Assembly (NCBI GenBank): GCA_951406725.2
Contig: OX597832.1
Location: 14,198,001 to 14,262,000, forward strand
Reading direction: 5' to 3'
Source: Octopus vulgaris
Lineage: Eukaryota
DNA length: 64,000 nt
The first letter of the stretch is position 1; each line of letters starts with the position of its first letter. Made by a program: the position numbers and the translations under genes. Under the pieces are notes generated by a model. It did no database searches. It had not been told where the DNA came from and saw only the letters and a program-made list of their open reading frames with translations. Positions 5,320 to 60,154 of the stretch are shown here, piece by piece.

Positions 5320-7642
5320 GCACACACTCATATAACATAATTGCATGAATTTGTGTTTAAATATATGTCTTTATACAAGCAGATATCTTAGCAGGTTTTG
5401 CGTCGCTTTACTATGCAAAGTATACCGCATGCTTTCAAATGAGCAAAGTAGAAGCGAAACATTTATTTTTGTATGGATTATTTTCTGTCAATAATTACTG
5501 GTCAGTTACAGTCTGTTTGTAAATGAGCTGGCACTGTTAGATTGTGAAGAAACTGTTATATTGAAAGATCATTCTCTGTTGTGGTGATAGTGGACAGGAG
5601 ACGGGCCAAATATTCAGACAACGAGAAACTTTAATATGCTTGTGGACTATAAATACCCATTGTGTTCTGACCTTATAATTTCTGTGTGCGTCATTCAAAC
5701 TTATTAAGACACATTTGGCTTCATGATTTCTTAGTTCCAAGACGCATTACATGCTATAGTGGATTCTGTTCTGATTTCCATTTAAATAAGAGAACAGTAG
5801 GTTTACAATATATTCACTTTTATGAAATGTTTCTTGAAATTATTTGCGTATATTATGAGGTGGATATATAGCAGGCTCCAAGAGGAACGATATTAATATT
5901 ACATATCTTCAGAAGTCACTAATGTTATAGAATAGATATTACCTGGAGGGCAATCTGGGAGTGTTTTTTTACATTACTCCGAGTAATCAGCGTGGCATTG
6001 ATGCAAGATAAGATATGTAATCTAAAATGTTGGTGGAATTTAAGCTAATTGTGAGACAAAAATTGTTTCAACTCTAACTGTTGGTGAGTCGTAGTAAAGT
6101 GTGTTGAGATTAATAAAATTATACCTGTCCTTGTTCTAGTGAAATACATAATACTTAATATATAATACTTAATGATACTTTTTTAGCGGTATGTCTGTTT
6201 TTGTAATATGCAACTGGCATTGGAATATGTGGTATATGGCGGATATATTTAGTTCTCTACTCTTTAGTCGTTAGCATTATATCAGATCGGATCATGGAAG
6301 ATGTGCAGACAGAGAAACATAGCTTACATTGTGTGAATGTGGCATACTTATTTGTGATATTCACGTGTAAAGAGAGAAAACTCTTAGAATTTTCTTCCTG
6401 TATTTTTGGAACATCTTGCTGCACGCAAACATTGCATATATAGATTTAGGCAAATTCGCACACACGAAGCATCATCGAATTTCCTGCTGCACGCGCAACA
6501 AACATAAACTTGAAACAAAGCATATTCAACGCATACAGCTTCCATGCAGTCTTTGCTGTTAATACGTTGCCTCGTTTTTCTTCCCTAATACCAAAAATGA
6601 ACGTGCTCACTGCTTCATTTTCAGCAAGATTCAACCGTTAACAAAACACAACGATGAATCATCTCTCAATTCAACTTTACTAATTTTCCCCATTTTATTC
6701 ATTTCTTACATGCAGGAGATTTGGATTTTTTACAAAACGTTGTTTCCTCATTTGAACAGCGTGTGATTATTTTAGGTATGATTTTCTGTTGCTTCTATGT
6801 TCGTCATGCTATATTTTCTTTAATAAACAAATAGATTTCAAATTACTAATCTAGACATCAAATTTGGTCTCTTGAATTATATACATTCGGATTAAATATA
6901 CCTATACTTATACATACATTAATACACACACGCACAAACTCGCACATTCACATACACAGATGCATGCTCATTGTTGGCAAGCATACGATACCTTCCAATA
7001 CCATAGTGAAAATAACTTTAATAATAAAAGCACACATGTCACGTAAAAAATTAAATCAATGGGTAATGTTTTTTCATTCAACAGTAGACTTGGCTTTGAA
7101 GTAAAGGGATATTCTTTACCAATGAATTTGTGTGTGTTCTTGTGGATATGATAATTTACCAAGGTAGCATATACTGCATACACAGACTGTATTACTTACA
7201 CAACGAAAGAGCAGCTACATTAAAGTATTTTGCGCGAGAAATTTTCAGATACCAAAACAAATTAAGATGTAAAACGAAATTTGCGACGTATGTGCTTTTC
7301 AAAAACAAAATGAAAAAGAAACATTTTTAAAAAATCGGGAGCAAATTAGTCAGTAATTCACCTTTAAAATAATATTTTAATATTGTAACTATCTCAAGAG
7401 TTTAAAAAAAATGTCTGGATAACGTACGTAATGCAGGAAAAACCTTAAAAAGTTGAAACAAATATGGCATATTCTCTTAATTCATAAAGCCCTAAAAGAT
7501 AAGCATTTTTACTCAAACAGACAAAAATACGTATAGGCACTCAGAGATACACATGAAGGGACACGAACTACAACATGTACAAAGGAAACCGTGCATAGAA
7601 ATATATGCTTATATGGATATATATCAGCGTGTCTCTGGATCC

Positions 7643-9648: not shown

Positions 9649-10324
9649 TCTGAGAGCAATTCAGGATAAAAAAGGATAAAAAATAATTAACAAGCTAATA
9701 TTGAAACAGTAAAGAATATAGAAAAATATGTCAAAAATGAACAACAATTTCCATTGAACTTTGGATAAAACTAGCATAAAAATAATAAAAAAATACGCTT
9801 AAAAAATTTAAGTCTAAAACAAAAAAAGCCATGAAAATTTTAAATGAAATAATTGATTTTATGTTTCATATGATTTTGAATTAAAATATGGCTACATTGT
9901 TAACCAAATATGCAACTGTTTCTATTCTACATTTATAAAACTTCCTGCAAAAATTGCTATAGATGCATTTTTATTGTGCGTATATGTGCAAACATTTCCA
10001 TATAACCTTTCTCCTTTTCCTTATTTCAACCAACATCGACAAAAATGTATATATGTTTACAATCCATGGCACATACAAAAGAAATACATATTCACAAACT
10101 CAAAGTAATTGGTTAGAATTCGGGAGGGAGGGAAAGTCTCTTATATACCTTTGCTTGTAAGCGATGAAAGTGTTCAGCGTTAAAAAAAGTTGTGAGACAC
10201 TTGAATTCATCTGGAAATATTCGATCGAATACCTACCTCACTAATGCGAGTGTGCAAAACCCGGGCTTTATACTAACTTTTATATATATAAGGCCAAGAA
10301 TTAAATAGAGAAGCGATTCAATTC

Positions 10325-11605
10325 ACAGCATGTTTGAACTAGCATATTTAATTATGTTACATTGATGATTAAACGTGAAATAAAATTTATCTACAGGCTT
10401 ACCTCTTGTGGCTTCTGTCTGCTGTACCTTTATTGCTGCTTCATTTAAAAGAGTACGATAATTACAATTATAGGAATAAAGAAATAAATAATGAGACTCT
10501 ACTCTTACAGCTGTTTCAAACTTAGAGGTCCAGTATACCAAATTTGACACATCATACAAATATCATGTAGCGTGACAATTGACAGGACAATTTACATACC
10601 AGAAATGACAATTTTAACCTAAACCACGAGAAAATGGGATTAACTAATTCGTGTCTATACATCCATCTATATATATATCTATATATCCAACTAGCAATGT
10701 ATGATGTCAGTGCGTGCTTGTGCTAGTGTATATATGTGTAGAAGAGTGTTTGTGCTTTGTCAGATCTATGGCAACAGCTTACAGAACAGTGCCGATTTCT
10801 TTACTTCCCGAGAACTTAGAGGAACAGCATTTTATCAACAGGCTTAGTGCCGAGTTCATAAACTAATATATGTTATCGAATTTGCAGTTCAATATTTCAA
10901 TATGGCACCTCATAAAGTGGTTACAATGTGAGTTTCAATGTGAAGGTTACAATGTGAAGGCGGCGAGCTGGCAGAAACGTTAGCACGTCGGGCGAAAAAA
11001 TGCGTTGCCGTATTTCGTCTGCCGTTACGTTCCGAGTTCAAATTCTGCCGAGGTCGACTTTGCCTGTCATCCTTCCGGGGTCGATAAATTAAGTACCAGT
11101 TACGCACTGGGGTCGATGTAATCGACTTAATCCCTTTGTCTGTCCTTGTTTGTCTCCTCTGCGTTTAGCCCCTTGTGGGTAGTAAAGAAATATACAATGT
11201 GAGTTTCAATCATTCGAAGAGGTAGGATGAAAAAAAAAAAGAAACCATATATATTTATTCAGCAGGAATGTGTGTAGTGGGCAGACTGAATTAAGTCGCG
11301 AGACGTGTATTAGGCAGCTGCACTGTTCTACGCATCTTTGGCAATTATCTTGTTTGTGGATTTGTGAGTCTTGCCTTAAAACACTTCAGGAAGCAAATAC
11401 ACGAAGGTCGAACAAAAAATGTACACACACACGTTCGCAATGAAAAAGGTCCAAATTTAATGACTACGTATTGTACTCTTTTAAATGAAACAGCAATAGA
11501 TGTACAGATAGACAGAGGCCACAAGAGGTAGGCCAGTAGATAGATTAAATTTCACGTTTAAGCATCAATGTAACATAATTAAATATGCTAGTACAAAGAT
11601 GCTGT
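10325..11605. repeat. Inverted repeat, ~136-bp arms (10325-10460 / 11469-11605), ~1 kb spacer
   Basis: CTAGCATATTTAATTATGTTACATTGATG...CCTCTTGTGGC...TCATTTAAAAGAGTAC matches the reverse complement of 11469-11605, roughly 85-90% identity by eye. Confidence 0.9.
10957..11192 (+). mobile_element. tRNA-derived SINE with Nin/Deu-type central domain
   Basis: GGCGAGCTGGCAGAAACGTTAGC head, GAGTTCAAAT B-box-like motif, GCCGAGGTCGACTTTGCC..CATCC..GGGGTCGATAAATTAAGTACCAG core. 18-bp TSD TACAATGTGAGTTTCAAT at 10922-10939 and 11193-11210. Confidence 0.9.
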
Positions 11606-12732
11606 TAAATAACTAAGACTAGCAGTAAAATTATTTTCAGATTAAAACCAGTGAATTATCTAAAATTAGATTTGCACGTTAGGATGATTCAGTAGATATT
11701 AAACCTAAGCGTTTTTTTACTGAAATCAATTGTTTGCTTCAAATCATACTGTTATTAAGGAATACTGATATTAAAATGATTACGAATGCCAAACATAGAT
11801 TAAGAAACACTGGGAGGATTTGTTTGATTTTCCAGTAGGAGAATATGATGGTTTTCCACTGATGGAAATGACAGTTCATTCAATTCTAGATTTATTGAGA
11901 AACAAATGTTTTGGAAGGGATTTTGATTTATATTACAATTGTGAACAAATATTATATAGAAATAATAACAATGAAAATATGGATAGATTAAAAAGGAAAC
12001 TAAAATAATATAAGTTTAAATTATGGGAAGTAATTATGACTTAGATTTATCGTAAATTTTATTTTGTCACTGTTAATTTTCTTGAAAGAAAGGAAACAAT
12101 ATCAATTGTTTAGTCAATGTTGCGTACGCGGGAATGCAAATAACTCGCTCAATATATTTAGGACGCTAATCGGTAATGTTAAAATCATTGACACCTTCGA
12201 TGTTTTCCGGTGATGATGCATTTCTTTCAGCATCACGTTTTTACAATGACAAGCTTAAAAGCAGTAGATTTGTCGGTAAGATACGTAAAATTAATAGCAG
12301 AAAAGTGCTTAACAACAATGAGTTTGGGAAATGAGTATTATATGTAAAACAAGTTATGTGTGTATAGATTAGTTGTGAGTATTCGTAAGTATTGATATCA
12401 TTAAAGAATTCAATATTTTCTGAGATTGCAATATTTTGTAAGAATAGTATAAGGATATAAAATAGAAATGTACTAAGATTAGTCTTTCAGAATTCATAAA
12501 TTTATTTGCCATATTTAGAGTTTAAAGTTTTGCCAAGGTAAACGAAGAGACTATAGAATTATTGTATATTTCCATAAGTTATGTCGTGGGCTACTTGTAC
12601 TGAATTACAAAACATTGTATGAGACATCGAAGATAGATTATTGACTATCTAGAGGAACAGCTGTAATGTCAAATTGACTTCCCTTCTCGTCACATAAAGC
12701 ATTTGTCTATACATATTTTTGTTTCATATATG

Positions 12733-13780: not shown

Positions 13781-13805
13781 AATAATGATGATAATAATAA
13801 TAATA

Positions 13806-14533
13806 GACCAAAGCCTCCCCACCAGAAATTACCAAAAACATGTAATGAAAAGAAATATTACAAGTAACTGCAGAATATGTGGAGATGGACAAGAAACAAT
13901 AAATCATATTATCTCTAGCTGCCCAGTCCTGGCTAAGAAGGAATATATTCACAGACATGACAGAGTTGGAACCTACATACATTGGAAGCTATGCCAACAT
14001 TATGGAATAACAACAGAAAAAAGATGGTATAGGCACACACCAGAAAAGGTCACAGAAAACGAGAAAGCAACCATACTCTGGGATATGCCGATACACACAG
14101 ATAGAGAAATTAAGGCCAACAGACCAGATATAGTTGTCAGAGATCATGAAGAAAAAAAATGCTTTCTAATTGATGTATCAATACCGGCAGATGAACAACG
14201 TGTCTCTAAAAGAAATGGAGAAACTCTCAAAATACAAAGACCTGGAAATAGAGGTAACTAGAATGTGGAACCTGAAAACAGAAACAATTCCTATCATAGT
14301 AGGTGCATTAGGCATGATAAAAAAATATTCAGACAAATACATAACAAAAACACCAGGAATTACAAACACATATAACATACAGAAAATTGCACTATTAGGC
14401 ACTGCACACATCCTACGCAGAACACTTTCCATACAATAACCATCAGAGCATCACAACAAATCACAGCACATACCCAAGGCACACAGAGCTGCGCTCGGTA
14501 GTGAAGTGAAAGCACGCTATAAAAATAAAACTA

Positions 14534-14536
<3 letters not shown>
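13806..14536 (+). mobile_element. R4/Dong-clade non-LTR retrotransposon, 5'-truncated, young
   Basis: CRICG..ETINHIISSC zinc knuckle, RHD, KANRPDIVV..LIDVSIP restriction-like endonuclease, KYKDL. Stop at 14439. Flanked by (AAT)n on both sides. One +1 frameshift near 14193. Confidence 0.93.
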
Positions 14537-14608
<72 letters not shown>

Positions 14609-18479: not shown

Positions 18480-19520
18480 CGCATGTTTCTCGCCAAAAAC
18501 TACATGCTATCACTCCTTATTAAGTGACGTTGGATGTTAATACTCGTAGCAAGGCCACAGACGTAGCAGAAAAAAATTGATGTAATTCTCAGAAAAGCGG
18601 TCAGGTATCTAGAGCGGAGAAAAGTGCTGACCATTGAGATTGTAGAGAGGCCACTAGCATTTTGGGACTCTGAATATTCTCTCTTATGTCCAGATTTTCT
18701 GTATTTCTTGGCAGTAGGCGAGTGTGGATCTGGAGGCTCTGTGATCACTAATTCGATACGAAGAGATTGTAGCAAACAATGAAACACGGCAGGTATTTGA
18801 ATCTATTCATTCATACGTTCTAATTATGTAATATTATGTTGACATGTCCTTTGCATTTTTTAGCTCAAGTATCATATTAGGCATGATAGTGATCAGTTGA
18901 ATATTCCCTTGCGGAGTTTCTTGCCAACTTTCATGCAGTTATCTCTAAAGATCTGGCTTTCAAGATGAATGTATAAATTTATATACCTGTCGTATTTCAT
19001 TGTTTGCTGCAATTTCTTCGTATCGAATTAGTGATCACAGAGCCTCCAGATCCACACTCGACTACTGCCAAGAAATACAGAAAATCTGGACATAAGAGAA
19101 AATGCTATGTCGAACAATTTGGAGCAATGTTTCATCAGAGCTGGTGGAGTTTCAGGGAAACATAAAAATGTGTTGGTATTGCAGAAAGAACCCCTTCTAA
19201 ACTTCTGCAGTGGTGAAATGATTAAAGAACAGTCTTTATGGAAGATGATGCTCCTTCGCACAAGGCTAAAATGACCCGAGATTTGTTCGATGAGAATGAC
19301 ATTAAATAGCTTCCACGACCAAGCCAGTCACCAGATATGAACCCTAGTGGACACTTCCGGGCCATAATGGACAAAAACAGTGCATAAAAAGAGCGAGGAA
19401 GCATCTTGAAAGCCAGATCTTTTGCGATAACGGCATGAAACTTGGCAAGGGAATATTCAACTGATCACTATCATGCCTAATATGATACTTGAGTTGAAAA
19501 ATGCAAAGGACATGTCTTTT
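18480..19520 (+). mobile_element. Degenerate Tc1 (DD34E-type) transposon with internal inverted duplication
   Basis: FMEDDAPSHKAKMTRDLFDENDIK*LPRPSQSPDMNP at ~19235-19345 resembles FQQDNAPCH..WPSQSPDLNPIE. SMP..AKG-like end at ~19470-19510. Confidence 0.8.
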
Positions 19521-19628
19521 TAATATTAAATAATTGGGAGTTATAAACTCAGATTTCAATAACTTTTAATGATTATATGTGTGTATATTTACTTCTATCA
19601 TGTCTCTCTGTACGTGTATATGCATACA

Positions 19629-33598: not shown

Positions 33599-34910
33599 GA
33601 TAATAGGTATCAACACTTTAGCTGTCCCAGTTATAAGTTACAGCTACAATATCCTTAACTGGACACGAAATGAACTGTCCAAAATAGATAGGAAAACAAG
33701 AAAAATACTGACAGGATCTAGGATGCATCACCCAAAATCTGACATAGAAAGACTATATATACAACGTATAGAAGGTGGTAGAGGCCTTATACAGCTGGAA
33801 AACTACTATAAAATAACCACCATAGGACTGCAAAAATACCTACTTCAGAAGGAAGGAAAACTGATCCAGCAAAACACGAGCAAAACAAAAAAAACTGTTC
33901 TCAGTATTTAAGGAAGCTGACAAATACAAACAAGAAATCATACCACCTAATAAACACAAAGAAGAAGAAGATGATGAAGAAACAACAAAAGCTATAAAAC
34001 AAATGAAATCCAAACTAAAAATAGAACAGCAACGAGCCATGATAAAACGATGGCAAGAAAAACCCTTCATGGTAAATACTGCACTAAACTAAACGCAAAA
34101 GAAATAGACAAAGAAAAATCCCAGCAATGGTTGAGAAGCTCAGGACTCAAAGCAGAAACAGAGGGATTTTTAATTGCAGCACAAGACCAAAGCCTCCCCA
34201 CCAGAAATTACCAAAAACATGTAATGAAAAGAAATATTACAAGTAACTGCAGAATATGTGGAGATGGACAAGAAACAATAAATCATATTATCTCTAGCTG
34301 CCCAGTCCTGGCTAAGAAGGAATATATTCACAGACATGACAGAGTTGGAACCTACATACATTGGAAGCTATGCCAACATTATGGAATAACAACAGAAAAA
34401 AGATGGTATAGGCACACACCAGAAAAGGTCACAGAAAACGAGAAAGCAACCATACTCTGGGATATGCCGATACACACAGATAGAGAAATTAAGGCCAACA
34501 GACCAGATATAGTTGTCAGAGATCATGAAGAAAAAAATGCTTTCTAATTGATGTATCAATACCGGCAGATGACAACGTGTCTCTAAAAGAAATGGAGAAA
34601 CTCTCAAAATACAAAGACCTGGAAATAGAGGTAACTACAATGTGGAACCTGAAAACAGAAACAATTCCTATCATAGTAGGTGCATTAGGCATGATAAAAA
34701 AATATTCAGACAAATACATAACAAAAACACCAGGACTTACAAACACATATAACATACAGAAAATTGCACTACTAGGCACTGCACACATCCTACGCAGAAC
34801 ACTTTCCATACAATAACCATCAGAGCATCACAACAAATCACAGCACATACCCAAGGCACACAGAGCTGCGCTCGGTAGTGAAGTGAAAGCACGCTATAAA
34901 AATAAAACTA

Positions 34911-34913
<3 letters not shown>
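33597..34913 (+). mobile_element. R4/Dong-clade non-LTR retrotransposon, 5'-truncated, young
   Basis: INTLAVPVISYS..HPKSDIERLYI..GGRGL..LKAETEGFLIAAQDQ, CCHC knuckle, RLE domain, stop at 34816. (AAT)n on both sides. Nearly identical to 13806-14536. Confidence 0.95.
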
Positions 34914-34992
<79 letters not shown>

Positions 34993-39230: not shown

Positions 39231-39268
<38 letters not shown>

Positions 39269-39405
39269 CGGAGATGTACCGCATAGCAAGTAATTTGATC
39301 TGAGATCGTGTGCTGAAACGAAAACAATTGCAGCGTGGAAGGTGTTTATAAGCCATTTAAGAAACACACAAAAGCCGTTCGATTCACTCCAACATTTAAG
39401 TTTAA

Positions 39406-39455
39406 TTTGTCAAAATATTTTCGTCGCTAAAATCCGCGACCTGTTCACTGACAAA
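39406..39455 (-). ncRNA. Type I hammerhead-like fold with G3:C8 core (GUGAACA)
   Basis: TTTGTCA-GTGAACA-G-GTCGC(GGATTTTA)GCGAC-GAA-AATATT-T-TGACAAA: 7-bp stem I, 5-bp stem II, palindromic stem III. Confidence 0.65.
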
Positions 39456-39961
39456 GTCCGTGCTGCATCTAAGAAAGTAACAGTTAGTTCGTCATATATA
39501 TGTACGTATGTATGTGTGTATTATGCATACATGTGTGTATGTATGTACGTATGCATGTACGCACATACGCCTGTGTATGCATGTATGTATGTATGTATGT
39601 ATGTATGTATGTATGTATGTATGTATGTATGTATGTATGTATATATGTATGTGTGTGTATAAGCACGCACATACACTCTATAAAACATAAAGTTATAAAC
39701 CTGTAGCGATGGATGGATGTAGAGTGACCACTCATCACAACGCTATCAAATTTCAACTCCCTACGGCCGAGGCTAGAAAGTGAATTTATGACGCTTGCTC
39801 ACAAGAACTATACCCTAAAATCTATTATCAGATTTTTATCTCTATATCACAGAACTAATGTTTTACTATTGTTCGTATGTATGTATGTATGTATGTGCGT
39901 ATGTATGTATGTATGTATGTATGTATGTATGTATGTATGTATGTATGTATGTATGTATGTA

Positions 39962-40007
39962 TGTCAGTGAACAGGTCGCGGATTTTAGCGACGAAAATAT
40001 TTTGACA
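39962..40007 (+). ncRNA. Second copy of the G3:C8 hammerhead-like fold
   Basis: TGTCA-GTGAACA-G-GTCGC(GGATTTTA)GCGAC-GAA-AATATT-T-TGACA; stem I is truncated to 5 bp. Confidence 0.6.
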
Positions 40008-40084
40008 AATTAAACTTAAATGTTGGAGTGAATCGAACGGCTTTTGTGTGTTTCTTAAATGGCTTATAAACACCTTCCACGCTG

Positions 40085-40132
<48 letters not shown>

Positions 40133-45280: not shown

Positions 45281-45281
<1 letters not shown>

Positions 45282-45364
<83 letters not shown>

Positions 45365-45830
45365 ATAGTATTACCGAGCTGTGGTTCCTTGTAGCTCCTA
45401 TATTTTCACTGTATTGGAATTGTTTCCCGTTGGATGTGTGCGGTGCCTAGTAGTGCTATTTTCTTAATTATACATACACTTGTAAGTCCTGGTGTTTTGG
45501 GTATCTATTTGCCTTAATGGCTTTTTATCATACCCGATGCGCCTACTATGATGCGAATTGCTTCTGTTTTTATGCTCCACATTCGAGTTACCTAAATCTA
45601 TTTCCACATTTTTGCATATGTAAAAGTTTTTCCGCTTATTTTAGAGAAATATTGCCATCTGTTGGTATTGATGCATCGATTACAAAGCATTTCTTTCCTT
45701 GGTCATCTCTGACTACTATATCCGGTTTATTGGCCTTGATTTCCCTGTCTGTGTATATTGAGATATCTGAGAATACGGCTGCTTTCTCATATTACGTGAT
45801 ATTTTCCTGCAGTCACCTCAGCTACATCCT
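45282..45830 (-). mobile_element. Old R4/Dong-clade 3' fragment with (AAT)n tail
   Basis: Reverse complement matches the 13806/33597 family: DREIKANKPDIVVRD..CFVIDASIP..IVGA..KIALLGTAHI. Tail at 45282-45362. Confidence 0.85.
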
Positions 45831-46731: not shown

Positions 46732-46838
46732 GAAATTCGGGGTGAGTACTTGATAATTATAAGCACCTGTGTATACCGTTTGGTGGTGTAGGTGGTGGAG
46801 TAAATTGATCAAAATAAAAACATGATGCGAAGGATTCA

Positions 46839-46916
46839 GCGGTACATATGTTTCGGGCCTTTATTAGACAGATTTATAACAATGCATAATGTATGTCTGT
46901 GGCCTTCTTCAGCCGC
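46839..46916 (-). ncRNA. Type I hammerhead ribozyme-like motif (mirror copy)
   Basis: Reverse complement of 47152-47229. Confidence 0.7.
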
Positions 46917-47151
46917 GCACAACAGCTTCCACAAGGACATGTGTTACATCAGAAATTCTTGGTTGGGGATGCAAATCCTCCCATTCGCGTACGACATAAT
47001 GCGGCAGCAGCATAGAATTGAAGCGTCCAAGAAAGAGATGGACGCTTCAATTCTATGCTGCTGCCGCATTATGTCGTACGCGAATGGGAGGATTTGCATC
47101 CCCAACCAAGAATTTCTGATGTAACACATGTCCTTGTGGAAGCTGTTGTGC

Positions 47152-47229
47152 GCGGCTGAAGAAGGCCACAGACATACATTATGCATTGTTATAAATCTGT
47201 CTAATAAAGGCCCGAAACATATGTACCGC
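47152..47229 (+). ncRNA. Type I hammerhead ribozyme-like motif
   Basis: GCGG-CTGAAGA-A-GGCC-ACAGA...TCTGT...GGCC-C-GAA-ACATATGT-A-CCGC. Intact CUGANGA/GAAA core, palindromic stem III, GUA triplet (predicted cut after 47225). Stem II closure is imperfect. Confidence 0.7.
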
Positions 47230-47261
47230 TGAATCCTTCGCATCATGTTTTTATTTTGATC

Positions 47262-47299
<38 letters not shown>

Positions 47300-59587: not shown

Positions 59588-60154
<567 letters not shown>

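Follow-up and report, generated by a model that had tools for sequence, protein, structure and literature searches.

Two inverted arms in the genome of Octopus vulgaris carry a motif that folds as a small hammerhead ribozyme and in which the two partners of the tertiary 3:8 pair have changed places. The question raised by this locus is whether such a motif is a damaged hammerhead, or one whose core was re-paired in reverse and has since been kept for a function. The window, which is the whole stretch of 64,000 nucleotides that was analysed (contig OX597832.1, positions 14,198,001 to 14,262,000 of the forward strand), was examined together with related copies elsewhere in the genome.

A hammerhead fold with a G:C pair at 3:8

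The arms (39327-39453 and 39962-40088) are 127 nt each and 100% complementary. The motif lies on the minus strand in the left arm and on the plus strand in the right, and its parts follow in the order stem I, GUGAACA, an extra G, GUCGC-loop-GCGAC, GAAA, AUAUUU and UGACAAA. The left copy, a minimal type I hammerhead identified by pattern scan, folding and copy alignment, occupies 39406..39455 on the minus strand. Its 7-bp stem I (39455-39449/39412-39406) is followed inwards by the core (39448-39442, with G3 at 39448 and C8 at 39443), an inserted G at 39441 between A9 and G10.1, stem II (39440-39436/39427-39423), GAAA (39422-39419), the palindrome AAUAUU (39419-39414) and U17 (39413), and the predicted cut falls between 39413 and 39412. 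The right copy (39962..40007, plus strand) has its core at 39967-39973, with G3 at 39967 and C8 at 39972, and its predicted cut between 40002 and 40003; it starts at TGTCA, which leaves a stem I of 5 bp only. The original prediction, two minimal type I hammerheads reading GUGAACA in place of CUGANGA, is thus borne out in both copies for the core, the fold, stem II, GAAA and the palindrome, while the 7-bp stem I holds for the left copy only.

The left copy folded better than all of 200 shuffled versions (z=-3.2), and the right copy was equalled by 5 of 200 (z=-2.3). In the 5′ UTR context the minimum free energy fold leaves the core single-stranded between stems I and II, with pair probabilities of 0.93-1.0. 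The literal CUGANGA core is absent and the Watson-Crick pair at 3:8 is present, as G:C; U4, G5, A6 and A9, G12, A13 and A14, the A15.1-U16.1 pair and an NUH triplet (UUU) are all in place, and none of them is polymorphic in the copy alignment. The extra G had been overlooked at first; an additional nucleotide between 9 and 10.1 is standard in the Penelope minimal hammerheads of PMC4209133. The UUU triplet had been singled out as unusual and is indeed there, but U17 also occurs in the canonical-core relatives L063, L104 and L275 and is no peculiarity of the G3:C8 variant. Stem III consists of the palindrome AAUAUU alone, a duplex worth -0.2 kcal/mol that the computed dimer does not form. The predicted fold also puts G3 opposite U17, lengthening stem I and leaving G3 unpaired just 11%, and a molecule modelled in this shape is likely to be inactive.

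When the whole window was scanned with any Watson-Crick 3:8 pair allowed, two matches were obtained, both of them the GUGAACA copies; the scan limited the span of stem II and therefore missed a long-loop motif at 47152-47229. No hammerhead model was found among the 76 Rfam matches at E<=10, and these matches were rejected as chance, driven by microsatellite. With a GUGAACA fold that is real and that leaves no trace among the Rfam matches, canonical hammerhead models miss such copies, as had been expected of searches for the canonical core.

The long-loop motif belongs to another repeat of the window. A near-perfect palindrome of 463 bp at 46803-47265 consists of two head-to-head copies, each with a canonical-core type I hammerhead pattern; on the plus strand (47152-47229) this reads CUGAAGA, a long loop II, GAAA, the palindrome ACAUAUGU and GUA. 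The 3′ part of this repeat has about 1,070 genome matches, no ORF was linked to it, and its hammerhead-type fold is not significant (z-score 0.55). Elsewhere in the window, a non-LTR retrotransposon has left two 3′ ends (13805-14608 and 34184-34984) that share 99% identity and have (AAT)n tails; by its motifs, among them that of a restriction-like endonuclease, we take it to be R4-like, and a diverged copy of it lies near 45281-45806. Further inverted-repeat structures are found at 59697-60145, 18676-19535 and 10322-11608.

The Penelope-like element and its inverted copy

A DNA search of the 2.8-Gb genome gave 2,008 candidates, of which the 40 scored had 99-100% identity. The 30 copies retrieved share a common 3′ end, mostly adjoining (TA)n, and in many of them an ORF ends about 1 kb upstream of the motif. 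In these other copies, with open frames of 654-1,025 aa, the ORF shows a reverse transcriptase (RT) with YVDD, a CQSNCAVC linker and a GIY-YIG-type C-terminal domain, as motifs read from the sequence; the linked RT-GIY-YIG ORF that had been proposed for a Penelope-like family was in this way located. Of 25 homologues, Pfam recognized GIY-YIG in 5 and RVT_1 in 4; for the query ORF alone it gave 0 matches. A PDB sequence search returned one weak RT match, and among named proteins the nearest relative comes from Octopus vulgaris (58%).

One locus, L264, is a full pLTR-ORF-pLTR copy with the motif at 1237 and again at 5498, i.e. 4,261 nt apart. Its ORF begins at the ATG equivalent to window position 39356, and L264 itself is a broken copy. 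The location in both pLTRs, the extra base between 9 and 10.1 and a palindromic 15.2-16.2 are those of Penelope minimal hammerheads, and a single ORF with RT and C-terminal GIY-YIG, pLTRs, an inverted 5′-truncated copy and a one-sided tail are found as in Penelope-like elements. The window holds the 3′ end (pseudo-LTR) of such an element, a young Penelope-like retrotransposon. Its CX2-5CXXC linker and its microsatellite targeting, seen in the (TA)n ends, are features of Neptune (PMC8557442). Compared by features, the element resembles the Neptune clade in its single ORF (RT, CX3CXXC linker, C-terminal GIY-YIG), pLTRs, inverted 5′-truncated copy and microsatellite targets and differs from it in the variant hammerhead core; judged by linker and targets it is probably Neptune-type, with the same linker also present in Nematis.

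The main copy (39267..39964, minus strand) is a 5′-truncated element comprising the rest of the 3′ UTR, the pseudo-LTR and the tail. It is 92-93% identical to both pLTR regions of L264, with microsatellite gaps making up most differences, and it has the same 3′ end as 30 of the 30 best loci. The first 30 codons of the element's ORF lie at 39267..39356 (minus strand); the ATG at 39356 is 57 nt 3′ of the predicted cut and is the same that continues into the ORF in L264. Counted from G3, the 3′ ends of 96 position-ordered copies fell at +122 to +129 in 41, at +179 to +182 in 47 and elsewhere in 8, in an alignment that over-extends into AT-rich flanks, the 5′ ends discussed below being taken from other copy sets. 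Two groups of this kind mark a "tail", as left when reverse transcription starts at two sites (PMC11167929). The short arm of the window stops at the first group and the long arm at the second, and the tail of about 60 nt (39267..39326, minus strand) is present in one arm only, between the two likely start sites of reverse transcription.

The shorter copy (39962..40088, plus strand) is inverted and joined head-to-head, with a 3-nt TGT overlap with a (TATG)n repeat, and has neither start site nor tail. By sequence, the pair is bordered by (TA)n target microsatellites at 39237..39266 and 40087..40129, in keeping with the (TA)n ends of most of the 30 other copies. A role of this inverted pair is not supported. 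The two motifs lie on opposite strands and are therefore never together in one sense RNA, which rules out their dimerization in cis, and in a computed read-through RNA of either strand the arms fold as one 127-bp duplex hiding both motifs. Inverted copies within 7 kb were found at 11 of 20 loci, an inverted 5′ copy is a routine integration product of these elements (PMC8557442), and opposite-strand pairs of minimal hammerheads have been described before (PMC4209133). The inverted arm is an integration by-product, and a functional pair, if there is any, is the direct repeat. At eight loci on C1 (L120, L152, L153, L156, L157, L160, L176 and L193) one identical inversion junction was observed, which suggests block-wise amplification of the short inverted unit, be it a satellite, a segmental repeat or another element's passenger.

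One old swap, and its retention

GUGAACA was predicted to be the family consensus and is fixed as such. A 17-mer with positions 3, 7 and 8 free gave 7,761 genome matches against 4 for the reversed control, and 6,956 of the 7,761 carried G3:C8 and 27 C3:G8. Among 143 distinct aligned copies, G:C was present in 92 of the 100 that cover both positions, the remainder being single decays. Contigs from four runs with three organism labels span the core, and they listed no alternative at 39448 and rare ones at 39443.

A slightly wider C3:G8 pattern had 333 genome matches, and the C3:G8 matches represent sister families that are older, share these stems and continue downstream into homologous sequence. 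In a looser pattern with 3 and 8 free, a hand tally of the 100 matches listed of 186 gave C:G 53, G:C 17, A:C 10, G:T 4, T:G 4, G:A 3, G:G 2, A:T 2 and five singles, including C:C 1. When positions 3 and 8 were masked and a tree was built from 85 rows, 37 C:G-family rows and 48 G:C-lineage rows split at 98/96 and the young family was nested in the old G:C group, on a short alignment with a midpoint root and a bootstrap not fully settled. This split points to one old C:G-to-G:C swap, not repeated ones. Among 14 metagenome relatives a hammerhead follows the ORF in 2, and as both are C3:G8, C:G is ancestral. In a hand-picked alignment of 21 rows, where two distant rows contribute most of the two-sided stem changes, 89% of stem cells were paired (0 of 500 shuffles as high) and the 3:8 column held C-G 9, G-C 8 and other 4. 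The compensatory covariation claimed for 3:8 is, by pattern tally and masked tree, real between families. Were two of 11 core positions to change at random, they would be 3 and 8, and paired again, in about 1 case in 165; since the swap was one event, the many copies are not independent.

An active A3:C8 subfamily was also considered and rejected, A3 being found in 12 of 39 old copies, like neutral decay of G, and forming no clade. In the C3:G8 sister family with 333 matches (L319-L346), the core is canonical, and with GAAAGATTTCCGGACA on its 3′ side the first pair of stem I is broken and GAAA may be masked; the ribozyme of this amplified family may be a damaged one.

The members of the old G:C family diverge on average by about 34% from their own majority. 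Between this majority and the window copy, core and stems agree at 33 of 34 positions and all else at 116 of 158 (Fisher p=0.0013), in a comparison biased towards an identical core by the core-containing pattern through which the old family was reached. The sole core or stem mismatch is a CpG site, and one further position lies in a gap. From old to young, N7 changed from C to A, loop II was replaced, pair 6 of stem I went from G-C to U-A and the palindrome from AAUU to AAUAUU, and these changes respect the fold. Within the young family, polymorphic columns number 5 of 8 in loop II, 1 of 42 in core and stems, where it yields a U-G wobble, and 12 of 154 in the flanks; only loop II stands out, and the stems are not clearly better conserved than ordinary flank. 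As far as these sequences tell, G3:C8 has been retained from a family decayed by about 33% to the present one, and the suggestion that the fold has been under selection since the swap is supported.

Probably uncut templates and a possible role for the variant

The 5′ ends of short copies pile up at 39469-39470 (minus strand), and the 5′ half of the motif is retained in 68 of 96 copies that were anchored 3′ of the predicted cut, with the first match at -20 in 38. Before ATGCAGC, long copies read CAG or TAG and short copies often GAG; a hand tally found GAG in 23 of 36 short AG-starting copies among 100 listed, and genome-wide the short copies comprised 1,039 with GAG against 163 with AAG. An untemplated G from a reverse-transcribed cap is known for L1. 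The untemplated G observed here is probably also a copied cap, and the A at 39470, 22 nt upstream of G3, is probably the transcription start. Read as a cap, it implies that the templates of insertion are capped and uncut. A branch-point-like CTAAC, a pyrimidine tract and AG form a possible 3′ splice site at 39469..39487 (minus strand); this stretch coincides with the start site, and AG is found at the same position in several old-family copies. A spliced exon 1 behind the hotspot of 5′ ends was rejected: the 41 short copies included none with a shared leader longer than GAG and none joined to a donor, and there is no GAG|GT donor in the 3′ UTR, which strictly leaves a micro-exon.

At most 3 of 100 listed copies, representing 2 events, begin at the predicted cut, and a canonical-core family likewise reads through (1,032/1,072). 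A pile-up at the cut site as a sign of activity was thus found neither in the G3:C8 family nor in the canonical control, so that copy ends do not discriminate the activity of the variant. Unprocessed RNA is also used as template by the Anolis element (PMC11167929). In a single case, L191 (C1 near 42376182), an internal deletion has its 3′ edge exactly at the predicted cut.

The motif occurs twice in the element: in the 5′ UTR, where it follows the likely start by 22 nt and precedes the ATG by 57 nt, and at the 3′ end. The reading we favour, with a probability of about 0.62, is that of an abundant Penelope-like end repeat with a natural G3:C8 hammerhead which putatively still cuts, albeit slowly and probably in need of a dimer partner or of the element's protein. 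One lineage would have passed through a dead single mutant and then regained the 3:8 pair in reverse, the intermediate being survivable since insertion would not need cutting; cutting is not required for insertion in vitro (PMC11167929). Purifying selection would have acted on the core ever since. Two direct-repeat copies, such as those of L264, may pair via AAUAUU to form stem III, and a cut would strip the cap from part of the RNA, leaving uncut capped RNA as the template for new copies. In a protein-dependent Penelope hammerhead the engineered C3G/G8C double mutant partly restores cutting (PMC11167929), partial activity of the double mutant is also reported in PMC8495972, and a G3-C8 variant is stated, as data not shown, to perform better without C17 (PMC3884650), from which one may speculate that U17 avoids a G3-C17 trap. 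A bolder version, which we hold to be possible but doubtful, is that the dominant active lineage has long relied on a functional hammerhead in which the general-acid position 8 is occupied by C; slow and gated by protein or dimer, this ribozyme would split the RNA into capped templates and decapped RNAs with another fate.

The best surviving alternative, which we regard as unlikely, is a structure that does not cut, such as a protein-binding site or a 5′ UTR element for translation or export, for which the 3:8 pair would matter as shape and catalysis would no longer count. Capped and uncut insertion templates, the location inside a 115-nt 5′ UTR, the modelled G3-U17 mispairing with a very weak stem III and the proposal of hammerhead folds as translation-initiation aids (PMC13725137) are all consistent with it. 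It is opposed by residues unchanged between old and young families (G12, A13, A14, G5, A6, A9 and A15.1-U16.1) and by a dimer palindrome that was retained while lengthening, and copies of canonical families are uncut too. That the motif is a dead relic, two chance founder mutations hitch-hiking with a successful retrotransposon, is improbable. Such a relic would fit a single event, the dispensability of cutting in vitro (PMC11167929) and the success of Naiad elements without canonical hammerheads (PMC8557442). However, the changes hit exactly the paired positions and re-paired them, core and stems were kept while 27% of other positions changed, and the A3:C8 copies of the old family (12/39) are scattered decay with no amplified lineage. 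Least probable of all is a downstream core-promoter element of the DNA as the reason for the conserved letters 22-35 nt past the start site, since such elements require fixed spacing and the distance from the start AG to G3 varies by one base between subfamilies, and paired stems and GAAA would be left unexplained, even if the start site 22 nt before G3 agrees with it. The internal promoter of Penelope does have a downstream element (PMC2377424).

The favoured reading, a variant hammerhead still capable of slow cutting, combines known and seemingly new elements. Both pLTRs with a motif, the extra nucleotide at 9/10.1, G10.1-C11.1, a tiny palindromic stem III, thousands of mostly solo copies and opposite-strand pairs, there 100-700 bp apart, are shared with the Penelope minimal hammerheads of PMC4209133. 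These are reported to have C3:G8 and one U3:A8 family (about 1,300 matches, Schistosoma) and are heterogeneous, in contrast to the G3:C8 and the high uniformity of the octopus family. The Anolis Poseidon element PAc (Frangieh et al. 2024, PMC11167929) is alike in a hammerhead near the ORF start, two 3′ ends giving a tail, AT-rich targets and an uncut RNA template; it is naturally C3:G8 and has G3:C8 only as an engineered, partly active mutant, whereas G3:C8 is wild type here, with the ATG after the cut and a tail of about 60 nt. The U3:A8 covariants found in nature (Perreault et al. 2011, PMC3088659) are likewise compensatory tertiary 3:8 changes, by two transitions there and by two purine/pyrimidine-inverting transversions here. 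A natural G3:C8 was not found in the full-text literature searched and may have been reported elsewhere in print; a term search of the Cervera supplement listed 2 of 9 "GUGA" places, neither of them a hammerhead core. Minimal pLTR hammerheads, the extra base and U3:A8 are therefore known, and a natural, covariation-backed G3:C8 with putative activity seems to be new.

The octopus families provide large-scale natural support for a tertiary 3:8 pair with purine-pyrimidine inversion, for which the literature searched otherwise offers only a laboratory mutant of partial activity. In this one genome, thousands of hammerheads go uncounted in standard searches, and if the bolder version is true, searches for CUGANGA would overlook thousands of ribozymes per genome. 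With a young family, long open frames, a mapped start and matched canonical sisters, the element offers a clean test system for the function of Penelope hammerheads, and the conservation of its core although the copied RNA is uncut bears on what these hammerheads do.
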